Part shown: piece after piece, positions 13,095 through 49,889 of the stretch
Numbering within the stretch: the first letter of the stretch is position 1
How the letters are laid out: each line of letters starts with the position of its first letter
Sequence record: PP355091.1
Origin: Escherichia phage 235Ecol030PP
Reading direction: 5' to 3' (one strand)
DNA: 64,000 nt
The notes under the pieces: generated by a model
The model's database searches: none
Told to the model about the DNA's origin: nothing
The model's input: the letters and a program-made list of their open reading frames with translations, nothing else
Translations under genes and position numbers: made by a program

Positions 13095-14513
13095 TTATGG
13101 ATAGGTATAGATGATACCAGTTTCTAAAGCAGTTTTATGAATGATGTATCCATTACGCGATTCTTGAACATCAACTTCTGGATAGTCTTTCATCATCTTC
13201 TGAAGAGTGTAACGATGCAGGTAGTATTTACTATCTGGATCTTCAGTTTTCCAATCTTTACCTTCTTCGGTCATTTTTTGGATTTCATCCATAACCCACC
13301 AACCGCACCAGATATAAGCTGAAGTACGGTGTGGAAGAGGATGAACATAAGGCAATTCACCTTTTGGTTCCGGAGCAACTTTATCAGTTACCTGAACTTG
13401 ACCTGTTGTTTTAACTGTTTTGCTATCATAGTCAGTTGCTGTAACGACAGCAGTAACTTCAATAGTTTGACTTCCAACAGATGAGGTATCGACAGTATAT
13501 ACGTTAGTTGACCCTTCTACAGGAGAAGAATCTTTCTTCCATGAGTAAGTAATTTGTGCTGCTTCAGGTGCGCCAGTAACATTAGCAGTAAATGTAGCCG
13601 AAGCATCTTTCTGAACGTTAATAGAAGGAGGAGTCAATGTAACCTGTGGATTCATTGTCTTCTTATTAACCGTTAATGATACTTCATTCGAAGTAACTTC
13701 CTTTTCATTGTAATTTTCTGCAGTTACTTGGGCTACGCATTTAATTCTTTTTACTCCACTTGTAGTTGGAGTATAGCTAAATGTAGAGTTAGTTTCTCCA
13801 CTAATTTGAGAATCATCTACATACCATTTATATGTAGCAGACGCTCCATCAGGTTGAGAAACTAAAGCAGCAGTAAATTGAACCGGGGTTCCAATTACTC
13901 CTGCTGGAGGACTATCAGGAGTTACTGCCAAAGTAGTTGTCTGCTCCTTTTTATTAACAGTCAGTGATACTTCATTAGAAGTAACGCTTAGTGCATCATA
14001 ATCTGTCGCGGTTACTTGAGCTACACACTTAATTTTTTTAACTCCGCTTGTGGCAGGAGTGTAATTGAATGTAGCGCTAGTTGCTTCGTCCACAGGAGAA
14101 CCGTCAACGTACCATTGATACGTAGCAGATGCACCTGATGGCTGTGAAGCTAAAGCAGCAGTAAATTCAATAGCTGTTCCGATTACTCCAGCGTCAGGGC
14201 TATTAGGAGTTACAGCTAAGGTAGTCGTTTGTGTCTTATTTTGAACTGTGATAGTTGTACTAATTTCAGCTGTTTCGGGACTACTATCGGCAACTTGATT
14301 TGTTGCAACTACTTTAATAGTCTTTTGACCGGCAGGTCCTTTTAATACATAATTAAAAGTTGCTGACGTTTCTTCCTGTTGAGCACCGTCTACAGTCCAA
14401 ACATATGTAATAGGTCCATCTCCAGTTTGACCACTGGGTGTAGCAGTAAACTGCTGAGTCTGATCTATAACTCCAGTAGGTGTTTTAGGAGTTATATCAA
14501 CTGTAAAAGCCAT
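13095..14513 (-). CDS. hoc: outer capsid decoration protein Hoc with an extra tandem Ig-like domain
   Basis: 472 aa; N-terminus MAFTVDITPKTPTGVID and C-terminal capsid-binding region match T4 Hoc; internal 96-aa unit present twice. Confidence 0.9.
   Translation of the reverse strand: MAFTVDITPKTPTGVIDQTQQFTATPSGQTGDGPITYVWTVDGAQQEETSATFNYVLKGPAGQKTIKVVATNQVADSSPETAEISTTITVQNKTQTTTLAVTPNSPDAGVIGTAIEFTAALASQPSGASATYQWYVDGSPVDEATSATFNYTPATSGVKKIKCVAQVTATDYDALSVTSNEVSLTVNKKEQTTTLAVTPDSPPAGVIGTPVQFTAALVSQPDGASATYKWYVDDSQISGETNSTFSYTPTTSGVKRIKCVAQVTAENYNEKEVTSNEVSLTVNKKTMNPQVTLTPPSINVQKDASATFTANVTGAPEAAQITYSWKKDSSPVEGSTNVYTVDTSSVGSQTIEVTAVVTATDYDSKTVKTTGQVQVTDKVAPEPKGELPYVHPLPHRTSAYIWCGWWVMDEIQKMTEEGKDWKTEDPDSKYYLHRYTLQKMMKDYPEVDVQESRNGYIIHKTALETGIIYTYP
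13659..14234 (-). repeat. tandem duplication (2 x 288 bp) inside hoc encoding two consecutive Ig-like domains
   Basis: Protein units TQTTTLAVTPNSP...SLTVNKK and EQTTTLAVTPDSP...SLTVNKK, about 75 percent identical. Confidence 0.8.
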
Positions 14514-25389: not shown

Positions 25390-25392
25390 CAA

Positions 25393-25412
25393 TGGGGACC
25401 TTTCGGTCCCCA
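25393..25412. terminator. bidirectional terminator between gene 54 (+) and alt.-3-like ORF (-)
   Basis: TGGGGACC TTTC GGTCCCCA then TATTTTTATTT. Confidence 0.65.
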
Positions 25413-25417
25413 TATTT

Positions 25418-25708
25418 TTATTTACGGAATGAAATGAAAGCAGCAACTGAAGCAACTAAACTGTCTTCAATATAAACTTCAATTTTTACCGGAGCTTCTG
25501 ACTCAAATTTACCTGTTACTACACCCTGAAAAATACTTTCAGTCTGTTCTGGCTTTGAAAAATTTTCAGAAGGAAAAATTCCAAACTTTTTATCTGTTCC
25601 GAAAATTTTGATAAATTCATCATAAACCGCTTCGTTAAAAGCATTATCAGCAGGAATAACGCCTTCAACTACAAGTTCTTGACCTAAAAAGCGTAAAGAA
25701 GATTTCAT
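25418..25708 (-). CDS. hypothetical protein (position of T4 alt.-3)
   Basis: 96-aa ORF, GAGGA SD, directly downstream of a conserved early promoter. Confidence 0.6.
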   Translation of the reverse strand: MKSSLRFLGQELVVEGVIPADNAFNEAVYDEFIKIFGTDKKFGIFPSENFSKPEQTESIFQGVVTGKFESEAPVKIEVYIEDSLVASVAAFISFRK

Positions 25709-25715
25709 TTTGTGT

Positions 25716-25769
25716 TCCTCATGTTATGTCAGTAAGACTACTATAACACAACACGAGGGACTTGTAAAC
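25716..25769 (-). repeat. 54-bp early promoter/leader repeat, copy 1
   Basis: Differs at 2 of 54 positions from the copy at 39555..39608. Confidence 0.85.
25740..25769 (-). promoter_or_regulatory. early promoter: -35 GTTTAC, 18-nt spacer, extended -10 TGtTATAGT
   Basis: Minus strand GTTTACAAGTCCCTCGTGTTGTGTTATAGT, then GAGGA SD and alt.-3-like ORF. Confidence 0.65.
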
Positions 25770-25904
25770 TACATTTTGAACTTTTTAGTACGCGTAATAG
25801 GCATGCGTCGATTTTATACTGTTTCATTGTTTGAAGAGCAGTATCAAAACAGCATTAATGACACCAATTGGATTTCCACCCAAGTTTTTAAGCTTAACTA
25901 ATGA

Positions 25905-26128
25905 TAGTTTCTCATTAACACCTATCATTACGATATGCATCATTTTGTCGCCTGGTTTAACGTTTTATCTGTATCACCGCCAGAGGTGTATGTACAAAAT
26001 CTAAATCCAGGAAGCACGCTTTCTTCGCCGGCTTGAATAGCAAAAATTTGAGGTATTTTATGCTTAGGATTTAAGTTAACAACCGGCGCCGAAGCGCCGT
26101 CAAATAATTATGTAATAAGTTCCATGAT
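25905..26128 (-). pseudogene. decayed duplicate of the 5' end of alt (region of T4 alt.-1/alt.-2)
   Basis: Minus strand reads ATG GAA CTT ATT ACA TAA ..., parallel to alt start MELITELFDE...NLNPKKKIPQIF, with a stop at codon 6 and later frameshift; begins 3 nt after the alt stop. Confidence 0.6.
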
Positions 26129-28177
26129 TTATCCTTGAACGAACTTGTAAGGCATGTTTGCAATATCTATGCAAGACGCAATAATTCCAAGAGATGATTC
26201 TACTTTCTGTTTAACATTTGATGAAACAAATGATGCAAAGTCAACTCTATCTTCTATATCACCTGTCATTGTAACCAATTCACCAGTTTCCATTAAATGG
26301 TCTCCGTCATAGATTACCGATTCGGTGAGTTCTTCTGTGGTCATAACTTCAGCTTGAATAAGCTTGTTGTTAGTTCTAACTGTTCCATCGTTGTAAGATG
26401 CATCGGTTATTTTATTAACTTTGACCATTAATCCACGTGGCAAAATGACTTCCATTTCATTTGAAGGCGCTAAACTTCCACCGGGTAAAACAACATTGAC
26501 CTTATCAGCCCCAGTAATAACCCATCCAATTCCAACTAAATTATCGCTAGAATTTACTAGTCCTTCATCAGTTTTATCAATAGAAACACTTAGACGCTTT
26601 TCGTCTGGTAAAACACCTATAGATGAATCAGTCATCCAAGTACCAAAAATATTTGGATATAATGATGTTGACACAAAGTTTCTAAAATAAAAAACTCGAT
26701 TTTTTACCATTGCTTCATATATTGAAGGTAACATTCGTTGTGAACGATACAAAGTAATACCTTTTGGTAATCGTTCACCATTTTTAAAGGCTGAATCTAA
26801 ATTATCAATGGCTTGTTCTATTTCAGGTGCTGTTAAAATACTTGTACGCTCATCTGGATTATATAATCCCAAAAGAGCATTATTTATGTCTACATATCCT
26901 GAACCTACATATTCACGAATTCCGCGTTTTTGCGCTGGCGTGTATTTAGATGAATCTTTATTTTCGACTATAGGATGTAATGACCATCCAGCGGTAAGAG
27001 CATATCCACGTAATTCTCTTCGAATAATCTTTGTTTTTATTGCATTCCAAGAATTTTGTACTAACTCATTTGCAGCATCTTGGTTTAAATGCGAATGTCT
27101 GTTAATATTTCTTTCAAACCAGGCACCTTTATATTTTTCTAAAGTATCATCGACGATAGAAGCAATAGTTTCTAAAGTTTTTATTGAAGTAATAGATTCT
27201 TTTCGTAATTTTTCTAAAGCTTTATTTTTTATTTCTGCATTAATAATGGATTCTTTATCTTCAGGAATTATAGAAGCTTCTCTGAATGCCATCCCAGCTG
27301 TAACACTGCTAAGAGCATTCTCTAGTGCAAATCCTGAAGTAGAAATTACCGTTAATTCATTAGAATCAGAAATTAAAGGCGCGTCCGCTGGTTTATTTAA
27401 TTCTGCCGCTGAAGCCTCAAATTTTTGAAACATCGGTGTTTCAAATCTAGAAGATTCCAATGACTGACTTTGTGCAATTGCTCTACGGGAAATTTTAACT
27501 TTAACGATTACAGCTTGGTCAGAACGTTTATCATTTTCTTGCGCAATAGATGCTGCAATTGCCTCATTTTTAGTTACTTGGGCTCCAGTATCTTTATTGA
27601 TATAAACATCACCGACCTTCGATTCAACTTTAGTAAAGAGCTCGGTACTAATTTCCGGAACTCCTGGAATGTCTTCTAGTGATACATTTTTGCGATGTAT
27701 AAGAATATATGCATACTTTTTATCATAATCCCAGAGTTCCTTAAGAAGGACGTATCTGCCACCTGAACGACTACGGATAAGTCTATCAGCAATAACTTGA
27801 ATTTGTCGAGCTTGACCAGCGGTTTTAGACTTAAGAATACGAAGCATACAGGCATCAATTTTATACTGACGCATCGTTTGCATTGCAACAGTAAAAACTG
27901 AATTGATATAATTAATTGGGCTTGGACCAAGACCTTTCAATTTAGCAATTGAACCTTTAGCGGTTAATGTAAAAGGAACAATATGCATCATTTTATCGCC
28001 CATCTTTAAATCACGATTAGTATCACCTCCAGATGTATAGGTACATAAACGAAAGCCTGGTTGTTCAATTGCGTCATCAACATGAACTGAAAAAATTTGC
28101 GGTATTTTCTTCTTTGGATTTAAGTTTGTAATCGGAAGAGTAGTATCTTCGTCAAATAATTCTGTAATTAGTTCCAT
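26129..28177 (-). CDS. alt: ADP-ribosyltransferase Alt (virion-packaged)
   Basis: 682 aa from second ATG (GAGGA SD spacing); TATTTATA on plus = late promoter on minus at 28203-28210. Confidence 0.9.
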   Translation of the reverse strand: MELITELFDEDTTLPITNLNPKKKIPQIFSVHVDDAIEQPGFRLCTYTSGGDTNRDLKMGDKMMHIVPFTLTAKGSIAKLKGLGPSPINYINSVFTVAMQTMRQYKIDACMLRILKSKTAGQARQIQVIADRLIRSRSGGRYVLLKELWDYDKKYAYILIHRKNVSLEDIPGVPEISTELFTKVESKVGDVYINKDTGAQVTKNEAIAASIAQENDKRSDQAVIVKVKISRRAIAQSQSLESSRFETPMFQKFEASAAELNKPADAPLISDSNELTVISTSGFALENALSSVTAGMAFREASIIPEDKESIINAEIKNKALEKLRKESITSIKTLETIASIVDDTLEKYKGAWFERNINRHSHLNQDAANELVQNSWNAIKTKIIRRELRGYALTAGWSLHPIVENKDSSKYTPAQKRGIREYVGSGYVDINNALLGLYNPDERTSILTAPEIEQAIDNLDSAFKNGERLPKGITLYRSQRMLPSIYEAMVKNRVFYFRNFVSTSLYPNIFGTWMTDSSIGVLPDEKRLSVSIDKTDEGLVNSSDNLVGIGWVITGADKVNVVLPGGSLAPSNEMEVILPRGLMVKVNKITDASYNDGTVRTNNKLIQAEVMTTEELTESVIYDGDHLMETGELVTMTGDIEDRVDFASFVSSNVKQKVESSLGIIASCIDIANMPYKFVQG

Positions 28178-28202
28178 CATATCCTCTCTAGTGTGTTTAT
28201 TC

Positions 28203-28210
28203 TATTTATA
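28203..28210 (-). promoter_or_regulatory. late promoter (minus strand) for alt
   Basis: Plus strand TATTTATA about 25 nt upstream of alt start. Confidence 0.6.
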
Positions 28211-28215
28211 AAATT

Positions 28216-28233
28216 AAAGGCCCGAAGGCCTTT
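28216..28233 (-). terminator. terminator after ligase-distal ORF (UUCG loop on minus strand)
   Basis: Minus strand AAAGGCC UUCG GGCCUUU then AAUUUUAU. Confidence 0.55.
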
Positions 28234-28420
28234 AGTAATCTAGCGGTAAGAGAGTACGATATATTTCAAACTTTGGTCCTTTTTCATAGGCATCAAATGT
28301 TTCTGTGAATTTATTATAAGCGTATGCATCTACAAATTCGAGAATGACTTGTGATACAGAAGTAGAAACATCTCCACCTTCTTTTTGAGCAATGACAATT
28401 GTTTCTAAGTAAGCTTTCAT
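28232..28420 (-). CDS. hypothetical 62-aa protein
   Basis: ATG overlaps ligase stop (ATGA); hairpin at its 3' end. Confidence 0.5.
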   Translation of the reverse strand: MKAYLETIVIAQKEGGDVSTSVSQVILEFVDAYAYNKFTETFDAYEKGPKFEIYRTLLPLDY

Positions 28421-32596: not shown

Positions 32597-32965
32597 TTAT
32601 GCAACTTTAATCCAATTATCTAAATTTAATTCACCTTTGGCTTTCATTTTTTCAATCAAGAGGTCAGCGGTAATACGACCATTTTGATACCACGTAACAT
32701 CTTCAGAGTAACCAGTTTCTTTATCTTCATAAGTCTCGCAGCGAATTTTACCAAGAATCAAAGTTTTTAATTCGTATGTATCTCCAGTAAAAAAGTTAGT
32801 TAACATTATTTTCCAAGAGAAATCATCAGAAGGACCTTCAGGAGTCATACAATCTACGAATTCAAATTGTTCTTTGTATAAGTGCCACTGAAGTTCTTTA
32901 GTTTCGATAGCTTTATAGCCGTCGTGATCTTTACCTTTGATGTATGAGTTAAGATTGATTTTCAT
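32597..32965 (-). CDS. hypothetical 122-aa protein
   Basis: ATG, GGAG SD, early promoter upstream. Confidence 0.55.
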   Translation of the reverse strand: MKINLNSYIKGKDHDGYKAIETKELQWHLYKEQFEFVDCMTPEGPSDDFSWKIMLTNFFTGDTYELKTLILGKIRCETYEDKETGYSEDVTWYQNGRITADLLIEKMKAKGELNLDNWIKVA

Positions 32966-32992
32966 TTTATTCTCCTTTGTTTGTGTAAGATA

Positions 32993-33022
32993 ATACTATC
33001 ACAAAGGAACCATACTGTAAAC
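32993..33022 (-). promoter_or_regulatory. early promoter: GTTTAC, 18 nt, TGaTAGTAT
   Basis: Minus strand, about 30 nt upstream of ORF 32597..32965. Confidence 0.55.
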
Positions 33023-33051
33023 AACTTTATGCAATCTTTGGAAAATAAAAA

Positions 33052-33071
33052 AGGACTCCCGAAGGAGTCCT
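33052..33071 (-). terminator. terminator after the small basic ORF (UUCG loop, U-tract)
   Basis: Minus strand AGGACUCC UUCG GGAGUCCU then UUUUUUAUUUU. Confidence 0.65.
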
Positions 33072-33075
33072 TAAC

Positions 33076-38703: not shown

Positions 38704-39053
38704 TTAGAAAGGTCCTGGATGTCTTCTGCGAACTTGTTGAAGGAGTTGTTGATTTGTTTTTCAACCAATCCTGGCTTATGAGCCACCACATCCGCCTTCT
38801 TTGCGTCTTTGCGCAGTTTTTCATTTTCACGCTCAATAGCAGCAATTGCCTCACGATTTTTATTATTCATCGCATCAATATAATTATACTGAATTCGCAA
38901 ATTATTTAATGCTAAGGCGTTTTCATTGGCCGTTTTTGTAATTTCAGTAACTGATGTTTCTAATCTTTCTACCTTATTTTTTAAAATAATAGATGTTCCG
39001 CCAAATGCTATTACAAGTAATAGCAATCCAGCTGTAAAATTACTTACATGCAT
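38700..39053 (-). CDS. predicted membrane protein with N-terminal TM helix (position of T4 pseT.3)
   Basis: Hydrophobic segment FTAGLLLLVIAFGGTSIIL, then coiled-coil-like region. Confidence 0.5.
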   Translation of the reverse strand: MHVSNFTAGLLLLVIAFGGTSIILKNKVERLETSVTEITKTANENALALNNLRIQYNYIDAMNNKNREAIAAIERENEKLRKDAKKADVVAHKPGLVEKQINNSFNKFAEDIQDLSK

Positions 39054-39550
39054 AAAGTTTTAATAACCTCTACAATATCGTCTTGAGAAAGACCGTTAAT
39101 TAAAATATGATGTTCAGCTGGAGATTTAGAAATTTTAAAGCATGCCTCAACATCTTCTGCCATATCCGATGCGCTACGATTTGGATTACTAATTCCAAGA
39201 CGATGTTTTCCCGTCAAAGGATTAACGATGATATAGCATTTACAATTATTGATATGAACATTAGGTTGAGTCTGATTAATGAACACATCACAATCATATT
39301 TCGCAAGCTGATTTTCTAAAAAGACTTTCATCTCCTCAACTGCATCAGGAAGCATATCACGGGCTTGCTCAAGACGACGATTTCGATATTCTTTAATGGT
39401 CGTTTTCCGCTTGACTTGCTTAGCTAAATCTTTCTTAAGATCGGTGATATATCCAACTCGACGATTTCCTTTAAATACAGAAATCCCATCTGTAGTATCA
39501 CCGTATGCTTCAACGACCATTTCAGTAGTAATAAGCTGTAAATCCATCAT
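39044..39550 (-). CDS. alc: Alc, host transcription elongation inhibitor
   Basis: 167/168 aa (two adjacent ATGs after GAGGA); directly downstream of conserved early promoter; T4 position. Confidence 0.75.
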   Translation of the reverse strand: MMDLQLITTEMVVEAYGDTTDGISVFKGNRRVGYITDLKKDLAKQVKRKTTIKEYRNRRLEQARDMLPDAVEEMKVFLENQLAKYDCDVFINQTQPNVHINNCKCYIIVNPLTGKHRLGISNPNRSASDMAEDVEACFKISKSPAEHHILINGLSQDDIVEVIKTLCM

Positions 39551-39554
39551 AAAG

Positions 39555-39608
39555 TCCTCATGTTATGTCAGTAAGTCTACTGTAACACAACACGAGGGAC
39601 TTGTAAAC
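39555..39608 (-). repeat. 54-bp early promoter/leader repeat, copy 2
   Basis: TCCTCATGTTATGTCAGTAAGTCTACTGTAACACAACACGAGGGACTTGTAAAC. Confidence 0.85.
39579..39608 (-). promoter_or_regulatory. early promoter for alc: -35 GTTTAC, 18 nt, TGtTACAGT
   Basis: Near-identical copy of the 25740-25769 element. Confidence 0.65.
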
Positions 39609-39611
39609 AGC

Positions 39612-41199
<1,588 letters not shown>

Positions 41200-46652: not shown

Positions 46653-46971
46653 CATTATGTTCAGATAAGGTCGTTAATCTTACCCCGGAATTATATCCAG
46701 CTGCATGTCACCATGCAGATCAGACTATATCTTCAACTTGTTAAAGCAAGTTGTCTATCGTTTCGAGTCACTTGACCCTACTCCCCAAAGGGATAGTCGT
46801 TAGGCATTTATGTAGAACCAATTCCATTATCAGATTTTACACGGTAAGTAACTAATCCTGATGAAATTATTAAAGGGTAGTCCTACAATTTAGCACGGGA
46901 TTGTCTACTAGAGAGGTTCCCCGTTTAGATAGATTACAAGTATAAGTCACCTTATACTCAGGCCTCAATTA
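46653..46971 (-). ncRNA. td group I intron, ORF-less (319 nt)
   Basis: 5' end TAATTGAGGCCTGAGTATAAGGTGACTTATAC and 3' end ...GATTAACGACCTTATCTGAACATAATG match remembered T4 td intron ends; no room for an I-TevI ORF. Confidence 0.88.
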
Positions 46972-47519
46972 ACCCAAGAAAACATCTACTGATCGTTGAT
47001 ACCACTGCAAATCCAAATAACCATTACGCACATTAAACTGATAGAACATATGACAAGGTGGTAATGCCATATATTTAAGTTCAGCTGGATTCCACGCAGA
47101 AACAATTTGACGCCTATCATTTGGCAGTTTTTTAATACGATCAATAACTTCTATAATTTGATCTACACCACCAAAATCACGCCACTGTTTTCCATAAATT
47201 GGACCAAGTTCACCGCTATGGTATCCTAAATCTTTTGCTTGATTTTCGTAATTTTCATCCCAAACTGTTTTGCCTTGGATTAACGAATCATGTTGAATTA
47301 ATCGCAAATCATTGACATTTGTGCTTCCCGATAAAAACCAAAGCAGCTCAGCAATGCAAGCTTTCCAGGCGAGCTTCTTAGTTGTTACTGCAGGAAAACC
47401 TTTAGTTAAATCCCAGCGTAATTTAGTACCGAACAAAGCAATTGTTCCTGTGCCTGTTCGGTCATCGGTTTCGTAGCCATTTTCCAGGATATCTTTAATT
47501 AAAAATTGGTATTGTTTCA

Positions 47520-49556: not shown

Positions 49557-49784
49557 TTATTGTTCAATCAATCCCATGTAAAATTCTGCGTCTTCAGAAT
49601 CCATACCATCACAATATTCATTAGCCATAAAGCGGGTGAGGTCTTCAAGAGGACCTTCAATAACGATTTGAATACTCCAAAACTTAGAATCTTGTACACT
49701 TGTGATACTAAGTTCAGGATAACGATTACGAATAATTTCTTCAATATATTCAAAATCAACGATGTCAATATCAACTTTAGCCAT
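49557..49784 (-). CDS. hypothetical acidic 75-aa protein (frd-32 cluster)
   Basis: ATG start. Confidence 0.45.
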
Positions 49785-49889
49785 ATTGTTTTCCTCTTTA
49801 ATCGTCAGCAGTATTGCCGATAGTTGTATAGTACCATAGAAGAACAGGGATGTAAACCGTTTTGTGAAAAAAATTTTGAAATAAAAAAA

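Follow-up and report, generated by a model that had tools for sequence, protein, structure and literature searches.

The stretch of DNA analysed here, referred to as the window, comprises 64,000 nucleotides from Escherichia phage 235Ecol030PP (sequence record PP355091.1), a Tequatrovirus with approximately 98% identity to T4; gene names on the window were taken from the T4T annotation. The element in question is a 54-bp sequence found twice on the minus strand, in front of the genes alt.-3 and alc, and both copies are also carried by T4 itself. Gene alt.-3 (25418..25708, minus strand) encodes a protein of 96 amino acids belonging to family DUF5498. Gene alc (39044..39550, minus strand) encodes a member of the Pfam family ALC, and in the T4 annotation it begins at the second ATG, at 39547. 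Copy A of the repeat (25716..25769) lies directly upstream of alt.-3 and downstream of both the late gene alt (26129..28180, minus strand) and a decayed second copy of alt, the alt.-1/alt.-2 region (25770..26128, minus strand), which is intact in many relatives. Copy B (39555..39608) lies within the 61 nt that separate rnlA (gene 63; 39612..40736, minus strand) from alc. The gene order, with gene 54 next to alt.-3 followed by alt, and alc followed by rnlA, is kept across genera.

On the minus strand, from 25769 to 25716, copy A reads GTTTACAAGTCCCTCGTGTTGTGTTATAGTAGTCTTACTGACATAACATGAGGA. Copy B, from 39608 to 39555, has the same sequence except for T27C and T33A, that is, two mismatches in 54 bp. 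The copies are direct repeats with a start-to-start distance of 13,839 bp. They were the only matches when the window was searched with three or fewer mismatches allowed, and 100 dinucleotide-preserving shuffles gave none at the same threshold. An earlier note, made from the sequence alone, had described two near-identical 54-bp sites, and this description is borne out; the 54-mer is the sole long, high-identity intergenic repeat family in the window (family D6). The similarity is bounded exactly by the G of GTTTAC and the last A of GAGGA, and the flanking DNA is unrelated. A gap of 7 nt separates copy A from the ATG of alt.-3 (25708), and gaps of 4 and 7 nt separate copy B from the two ATGs of alc (39550 and 39547). 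Alt.-3 and Alc show no similarity by BLASTP and belong to different Pfam families (DUF5498 and ALC). Since the downstream proteins are unrelated, the duplicated unit is purely regulatory. For the same reasons, the resemblance of ELVVEG to EMVVEA is not homology, and a duplication reaching into the coding regions was rejected.

Each copy contains the elements of a sigma-70 promoter followed by a leader and a Shine-Dalgarno (SD) sequence. In copy A the -35 element GTTTAC is at 25764-25769, the TG of an extended -10 at 25747-25748, the -10 hexamer TATAGT at 25740-25745, the predicted +1 at about 25733, and the SD GAGGA at 25716-25720. In copy B the corresponding positions are 39603-39608 for the -35 element, 39586-39587 for the TG, 39579-39584 for the -10 hexamer, about 39572 for the predicted +1, and 39555-39559 for the SD; T27C changes the hexamer of this copy to TACAGT. 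The motifs named in the earlier note were confirmed, but the spacing was miscounted: GTTTAC is separated from TGtTAYAGT by 15 nt, and 18 nt is the distance to the TATAGT hexamer. GTTTAC-18 nt-TATAGT is equivalent to TTTACA-17-TATAGT in sigma-70 notation. In this notation copy A matches at 10 of 12 positions (25768..25740) and copy B, TTTACA-17-TACAGT, at 9 of 12 (39607..39579), both with the extended -10 TG. The GTTTAC(A), the 17-nt spacing, the TGn, the TAnnnT -10 and the position in front of early genes are all shared with the T4 early promoters of the UP / -35 GTTTAC / TGn / -10 class (Hinton 2010, PMC2988021). Ordinary T4 early promoters share the polymerase-contact positions only, whereas the spacer of the 54-mer is also complementary to its own SD.

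In T4, both the RNA and the protein of alt.-3 and alc belong to the early class, and alt, immediately upstream of alt.-3, is late (PMC9697503). Since alt.-3 is early while the adjoining upstream gene is late, alt.-3 must have an early promoter of its own, for which copy A is the sole candidate. The motif match and the early class of the downstream T4 genes together uphold the label of early promoter plus leader that the repeat had been given. The record of Yersinia phage fPS-65 marks the alc copy as a 'predicted early promoter', and the late-promoter motif TATAAATA was not found in either cassette. No T4 transcription start site (TSS) map and no description of an alc hairpin were found in the literature searched, older sequencing papers being outside that scope.

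The promoter spacer and the leader are complementary to each other, and the RNA of the 54-mer folds into an 18-bp hairpin in which positions 12-25 pair with 40-53 and positions 28-31 with 36-39, leaving a 2-nt bulge and a 4-nt loop. In copy A, the 5' arm (positions 12-31; 25739..25758, minus strand) consists of the spacer and the -10 element and includes the anti-SD sequence CCUC, and the 3' arm (positions 36-53; 25717..25734, minus strand) consists of the leader and the GAGG of the SD. In copy B the two arms, of the same make-up, lie at 39578..39597 and 39556..39573 (minus strand). The GAGG of the SD is held by the outermost stem pairs of the 3' arm. Therefore, what the earlier note had seen as separate conserved elements, spacer and leader, are conserved jointly as the two arms of one hairpin.

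The fold of the 54-mer in the gene direction has a free energy of -22.0 kcal/mol (z-score -5.4) for copy A and -23.3 kcal/mol (z -4.7) for copy B. The antisense fold is weaker, at -12.8 kcal/mol (z -2.3) and -15.3 kcal/mol (z -2.5), respectively, because three G-U pairs turn into C-A mismatches. This asymmetry points to a structure that acts as RNA in the gene direction rather than as a DNA palindrome. In an 86-nt read-through context the predicted fold is maintained (A, -23.3 kcal/mol, z -4.1; B, -28.6 kcal/mol, z -4.7). RNA starting at the predicted +1 is unstructured (A, -2.5 kcal/mol; B, -1.8 kcal/mol; z about 0). The predicted +1, placed at the usual 7-nt distance from the -10, is position 37, at the 3' side of the loop. 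Since it is downstream of the 5' arm, mRNA from the cassette's own promoter would carry only the 3' arm. The probability that the SD is paired with nucleotides upstream of the TSS is 1.0 in both copies, a value reached by none of 100 shuffled spacers for alc and by 2 of 100 for alt.-3. The suggestion that the two genes share post-transcriptional control thus gains support in a concrete form, with spacer and leader as the arms of one hairpin predicted to bury the SD.

Other identities for the structure were considered. The tails following the stem, AACACAAAAUG and ACUUUAUGAUG, have no T-run, and a terminator scan made no call at either cassette, true terminators nearby being called; the stem thus does not qualify as an intrinsic terminator. 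An RNase III site was considered unlikely, as stems in other genera are only 11-14 bp and too short. A search of the window against Rfam 15 gave no family match at gathering score at the cassettes. Its sole match was a group I intron (RF00028, 73.8 bits) at 46701-46981 on the minus strand, a position consistent with the nrdB intron of T4-like phages. As a separate observation, an AUG in the leader (cATGAGGA; window 25718-25722 and 39557-39561; cassette positions 48-50 onward) opens a mini open reading frame (ORF) of 4-5 codons in both copies, which closes at a UGA overlapping the true start codon (AAAUGA and UUAUGAUG). This mini-ORF is probably incidental, because the same AUG is ACG in the alc cassettes of RB69 and Marfa.

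The reading that fits these observations best, to which a probability of roughly 0.55 may be given, is that alc and alt.-3 are translated only from the cassette's own promoter. Each 54-bp copy would be a self-contained cassette that combines a strong sigma-70 early promoter with an SD-masking hairpin. Polymerase from this promoter would start in the loop and produce an mRNA with the 3' arm only and a free SD. Transcripts arriving from upstream, i.e. late alt mRNA at copy A and rnlA-containing RNA at copy B, would carry both arms, with the SD in the stem, where the hairpin would block binding of the 30S subunit. The downstream gene would then be translated essentially only from its own early promoter.

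Such transcripts may be expected at both loci. A terminator at 28215-28234 is followed by the late-promoter motif of alt, TATAAATA, at 28203-28210 (28203..28234 together, minus strand). The terminator scan called nothing between alt and copy A, and the transcription unit of alt and alt.-3 is closed by a bidirectional terminator between gene 54 and alt.-3 (25392..25413). Because a late promoter precedes alt and no terminator intervenes before the closure of the unit at 25392-25413, late alt mRNA would run through copy A into alt.-3, carrying a masked alt.-3 SD. Likewise, no terminator was called between rnlA and alc, and rnlA transcripts would read into copy B.

To extend the comparison, alc loci were gathered from IMG/VR and GenBank phages, representing about 14 genus-level lineages. 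The same layout, in different sequences, precedes alc in about nine other genera: GTTTAC and a 17-nt spacer that forms the 5' arm are followed by TGnTAnnAT, a loop and a 3' arm whose end is the SD. The arms read TCTCCGTTTAGTT / AACCAAACGGAGA in Gelderlandvirus, ATCCTCATCAG / CTGATGAGGAT in Jiaodavirus, TCTCCTCAT / ATGAGGAGA in Dhakavirus, CCTCATTTCGTTG / TAACGAAATGAGG in Winklervirus, CCTCGTTTGTT / AACAAACGAGG in Marfavirus and a relative, and TCCCATTTTGTTG / CAACAAAATGGGGA in the lineage of Enterobacter phage CIP9; Karamvirus has the same layout with the SD inside the stem. In 8-9 lineages the end of the stem falls exactly on the SD, and the z-scores of the alc hairpins in the lineages with the SD inside range from -3.5 to -5.8. 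In Gaprivervirus, alc is preceded by a terminator, a promoter and a shorter stem that masks the SD. In that genus (VR25, L016 15452-15685; L008/L027), a 77-amino-acid ORF named 'inhibitor of host transcription' lies between the promoter cassette and alc; a tblastn match with Alc spans 739 nt there, which suggests that this ORF is a partial duplication of the 5' end of alc.

The pairing has been maintained while the sequences changed. In an ungapped MAFFT alignment of five sequences in the same register, 94.3% of the cells pair, compared with 31-54% for slid partners. Both sides change in four pairs of this alignment, and none of 500 shuffles reaches its covariation score. A covariance model built from these five sequences, which include no T4 sequence, detects both copies in every Tequatrovirus locus with 31-39 bits. 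In an alignment of 11 distinct non-T4 cassettes, which was fitted to the structure of the model and is thus biased towards pairing, 93.9% of the cells pair, compared with 31-48% for slid partners, and two-sided changes are seen in 11 of 14 pairs (1-6 when slid), a wide margin over the controls. T4-genus copies are mis-registered by the model alignment (i+j = 65, compared with 60-62 elsewhere) and were excluded from the covariation counts. A second match of the model in Marfa (L018 8541-8602, 39 bits) has a z-score of 0.16, is promoter-driven and was not counted as a hairpin cassette. Overall, the existence and the conservation of the hairpin are well supported, and it is proposed that the design is ancestral before alc and was kept by compensatory changes across genera.

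Several points weigh against own-promoter-only translation and the history drawn from it, and the bias of the fitted alignment is one of them. The gating is inferred from the geometry of the cassette. In Tegunavirus and Kanagawavirus the hairpin is equally strong but stops 3-7 nt before the SD, so burial of the SD cannot be the sole selected property. The alc cassettes of Mosigvirus (RB69) and Muldoonvirus have no long hairpin, only a small stem internal to the spacer, and the SD is free. In several genera the upstream stop codon is 8-14 nt before the stem, where terminating ribosomes might open it, giving coupling and not silencing. The stem-loops between or over the promoter boxes in the promoter-early stem-loops (PeSLs) of RB49 and phi1 were shown to be terminators or attenuators (PMC2839356). 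Finally, the direction of copying from alc to alt.-3 is inferred from parsimony only, and the T4 cassette is about equally similar to the alc and the alt.-3 cassettes of RB69.

The main rival is an attenuator or RNA-end element of the PeSL type, in which the stem stops or trims rnlA and alt transcription, or stabilises the 3' ends of these mRNAs, and the overlap with the SD is secondary. In its favour, the alc hairpins of Tegunavirus and Kanagawavirus leave the SD outside the stem. The time course of T4 Alt.-3 protein, which is seen from the second time point and reaches a plateau by mid-infection (PMC9697503), fits translation from the own promoter only and fits termination at the stem equally well; the supplement of that study holds expression classes and protein intensities, with no per-gene RNA time course for alt.-3. 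However, the sequences after the stem (GAGGAACACAAAAUG and GAGGACUUUAUG) lack a T/U run, as do those of the other genera, and neither site is picked up by the terminator scan. Moreover, the stem end coincides exactly with the SD in 8-9 lineages, and a canonical terminator is already present after alt.-3. The attenuator is considered unlikely.

Translational coupling has a lower standing. Ribosomes finishing rnlA or the second alt would melt the base of the stem, and the output of alc and alt.-3 would be proportional to that of the upstream gene. The SD does lie in the outermost pairs of the stem, and the upstream TAG takes in the G of GTTTAC and lies only 8-11 nt ahead of the stem in Marfa-like phages, Kanagawavirus, Winklervirus, Dhakavirus, Tegunavirus and at the second alt of the T4 genus. 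By contrast, the rnlA stop of T4 is at least 14 nt from the pairs that hold the SD, and the stem in the T4 genus is 3-4 nt further downstream than in other genera. The second alt is decayed in T4 and in the window while the cassette is unchanged, and there is no late increase of Alt.-3 protein during translation of alt. Coupling appears improbable.

Still less probable is a plain promoter duplication, in which the copies are young, derive from one strong early promoter, and contain the hairpin incidentally. Tequatroviruses differ by only 2-3% overall, and 0-4 differences in 54 bp are to be expected without special constraint. However, the z-scores of -4.7 to -5.4, the strand asymmetry, substitutions that avoid the lower stem and, above all, a compensated hairpin at the same position in about nine other genera speak against it. 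The last rival is an inverted repeat in the DNA that would serve as the operator of a dimeric regulator or as a cruciform that tunes promoter firing or shut-off. The repeat is centred on the -10/+1 region, and the shut-off of T4 early promoters is incompletely understood (PMC3014915), but this reading is very hard to reconcile with three G-U pairs that work only in sense RNA (the antisense fold loses 8-9 kcal/mol), with sense-strand wobble pairs that outnumber A-C mismatches, and with arms so different between genera that no half-site is conserved.

Variation within the T4 genus was counted over 17 copies from 10 genomes. Only positions 16, 27, 29, 32, 33, 34 and 40 vary, and the -35 element and the SD-holding lower stem are invariant. 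G to A at position 16 converts a G-U into an A-U pair. T to C at position 27 affects the third base of the -10, in the bulge, and the C can pair with G40. G to A at position 29 yields a perfect TATAAT and a weaker 4-bp apical stem. Positions 32-34, with various changes, are in the loop, and position 40 (G to A or T) is in the pair beside the bulge. The double variant A29+A32 is present at both loci in PP01 and UFV06, and at alt.-3 only in Nami and pSe_SNUABM_01; A33 is carried by the alc copy of three genomes and by the alt.-3 copy of RB5. Since the same multi-site haplotype occurs at two paralogous sites, these patterns imply that the copies are recombinationally active, i.e. that they undergo ectopic exchange by gene conversion. 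It is proposed that the copies are near-identical through selection on promoter and stem plus occasional gene conversion.

The earlier note had also raised the possibility of deletion between the copies. Exchange between them is supported by the shared haplotypes; a viable deletion is ruled out. The interval holds alc, the spanins, pseT, cd, 31, rIII, 30 and alt, and both gene 30 (DNA ligase) and gene 31 (GroES-like co-chaperone) are essential; since their loss is lethal, the deletion could exist only as a defective genome. GenBank record PP500713.1 (a 'complete genome' of 152,184 bp) opens with the 54-mer and then alt.-3, and its other end consists of rnlA and an identical 54-mer, in that order. 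It is without the whole interval from alc to alt, approximately 15.8 kb, and matches the predicted deletion junction. Because essential genes are absent, this record most likely represents a contig with the repeat at both ends, the product of assembly collapse rather than of a real deletion.

A total of 997 occurrences of the 54-mer were counted in 499 phage records, with two copies in essentially every Tequatrovirus and none outside the genus. The native alt.-3 cassettes of RB69, VR25, Melville and Marfa have a small stem internal to the spacer and a free SD, and those of RB69, Melville and Marfa have z-scores of about 0. The simplest history, judged from these comparisons, is that an alc-type cassette replaced a native hairpin-less alt.-3 cassette in the ancestor of the T4 genus. 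Relatives with an intact second alt gene (Aplg8, PP01, Nami, UFV06, RB5 and fPS-65) carry the same cassette, which begins at the stop codon of that gene, its TAG overlapping the G of GTTTAC. Therefore, the replacement was independent of the decay of the second alt, and an origin of copy A at the junction of that deletion is ruled out.

Some further observations concern these loci. The small stem inside the -35/-10 spacer, found in the native alt.-3 cassettes and in the alc cassettes of RB69 and Muldoonvirus, covaries and has a conserved loop, (A/T)GGA(A/T). Examples are CACC-AAGGAA-GGTG, CATCC-ATGGAA-GGATG, CCACA-CGG-ATGTGG, GCAC-AAGGAA-GTGC and AACC-ATGGAA-GGTT, at sites in L015 (RB69; upstream of 551 and 13314), L016 (about 547), L017 (513), L018 (502) and L038/L039 (about 540-600). 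This spacer-internal stem resembles the stem-loop of the RB49-type PeSL. The remnants of the second alt in the window (25770-26128, compared with 28023-28180) match the 5' end of alt, 2,052 bp away, as repeat families D10 and D13; the remnant reads TMKQYKIDACLLRVLK and then skips to the last codons (KFKM*) right before the cassette. Elsewhere in the window, at 13659-14234, there is a 288-nt tandem duplication of two copies with 73% identity (repeat family D1).

The generality of the design was addressed by scanning every early-promoter-like site located immediately before an ORF in the window (n=8). The SD is fully paired with pre-TSS nucleotides beyond what shuffled spacers give at three of the eight: alc (0/100), alt.-3 (2/100) and 30.8 (0/100). 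An SD-masking spacer is thus ruled out as a general property of early promoters. The third cassette (32963..33022, minus strand), before gene 30.8 (32597-32965), is of unrelated sequence and has a z-score of -2.1; pairing is between the spacer UUCCUUUG (33002-33009) and the SD CAAAGGAG (around 32972-32977), and a strong terminator (33051-33072) precedes it. The site at 49784 (window 49782-49857, minus strand), a weak match of the covariance model (17.8 bits), has a pairing probability of 0.99, which 8 of 100 shuffled spacers reach, and was not counted. In Melville, a promoter-embedded anti-SD hairpin, CTCCGTTGTAT / ATACAACGGAG, with a z-score of -5.3, lies before gp206 (L017 6016-6086, upstream of CPT_Melville_206). 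The design therefore recurs independently, at 30.8 and at Melville gp206, but is not universal. A wider proposal can be put forward tentatively, at slightly less than even odds: the Tevenvirinae would hold a conserved class of portable, 'self-insulating' early cassettes in which the 17-nt spacer doubles as the anti-SD strand, confining translation to the gene's own promoter in any transcription unit and mirroring the late-promoter hairpins of e, soc and I-TevI; the alc version would have moved onto alt.-3 and made it early-only, with gene conversion continuing, and the 30.8 and gp206 cassettes would be independent members.

Hairpins that mask the ribosome-binding site are known for the T4 genes e, soc, 49 and I-TevI (also mobE and segB), in which a late promoter relieves the block (PMC3014915). 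The cassettes described here would share with e, soc, 49 and I-TevI the burial of the SD or AUG on long upstream transcripts and a promoter in or next to the helix that gives a shorter, translatable mRNA without the 5' arm. The geometry is that of e, soc and I-TevI, with the 5' arm upstream of the predicted +1 and the SD in the 3' arm, as read here from sequence. In those genes, however, the promoter is a late gp55 promoter and early read-through is silenced, whereas the promoter of the 54-mer is an early sigma-70 promoter whose own spacer and -10 form the masking arm. At alt.-3 the silenced read-through would be late, and the temporal logic would be reversed relative to e, soc and I-TevI. Neither alc nor alt.-3 nor 30.8 is in the list of T4 inhibitory structures in PMC3014915.

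A second comparison is with the PeSLs, which are mobile regulatory cassettes of T4-type phages (Arbiol 2010, PMC2839356; Comeau 2014, PMC4122927). As in PeSLs, an early promoter, a stem-loop, an SD and a start codon form one repeated unit, which is a site of homologous exchange and whose copies recombine. A stem over the -10 fits the 2010 definition of the PeSL (PMC2839356), not the 'just upstream of promoter' of the 2014 PST/T4 legend (PMC4122927). The stems of PeSLs are described as terminators or attenuators, short and G/C-rich, whereas the stem of the 54-mer extends from spacer to SD without a following U-run. PeSLs also flank variable ORFans in hyperplastic regions, whereas the 54-mer is present in only two copies per genome, at syntenic conserved genes.

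The 54-mer can collapse assemblies, as has most likely happened in PP500713.1. The promoter spacer would be under dual selection, for spacing in the DNA and for pairing in the RNA, which bears on models of promoter strength and on insulated synthetic expression cassettes. The two copies would also provide a concrete, datable case in which a regulatory cassette was moved from one gene to another and gene conversion later homogenised the copies, in support of the idea of PeSLs as mobile modules. If translation is indeed restricted to the own promoter, this would explain how alt.-3, although last on an abundant late mRNA, avoids late production, and how Alc, a transcription-termination factor, is confined to the immediate-early burst. 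The cassettes would then be the counterpart, among early promoters, of the classic T4 rule by which overlapping transcripts from a single gene differ in translatability.

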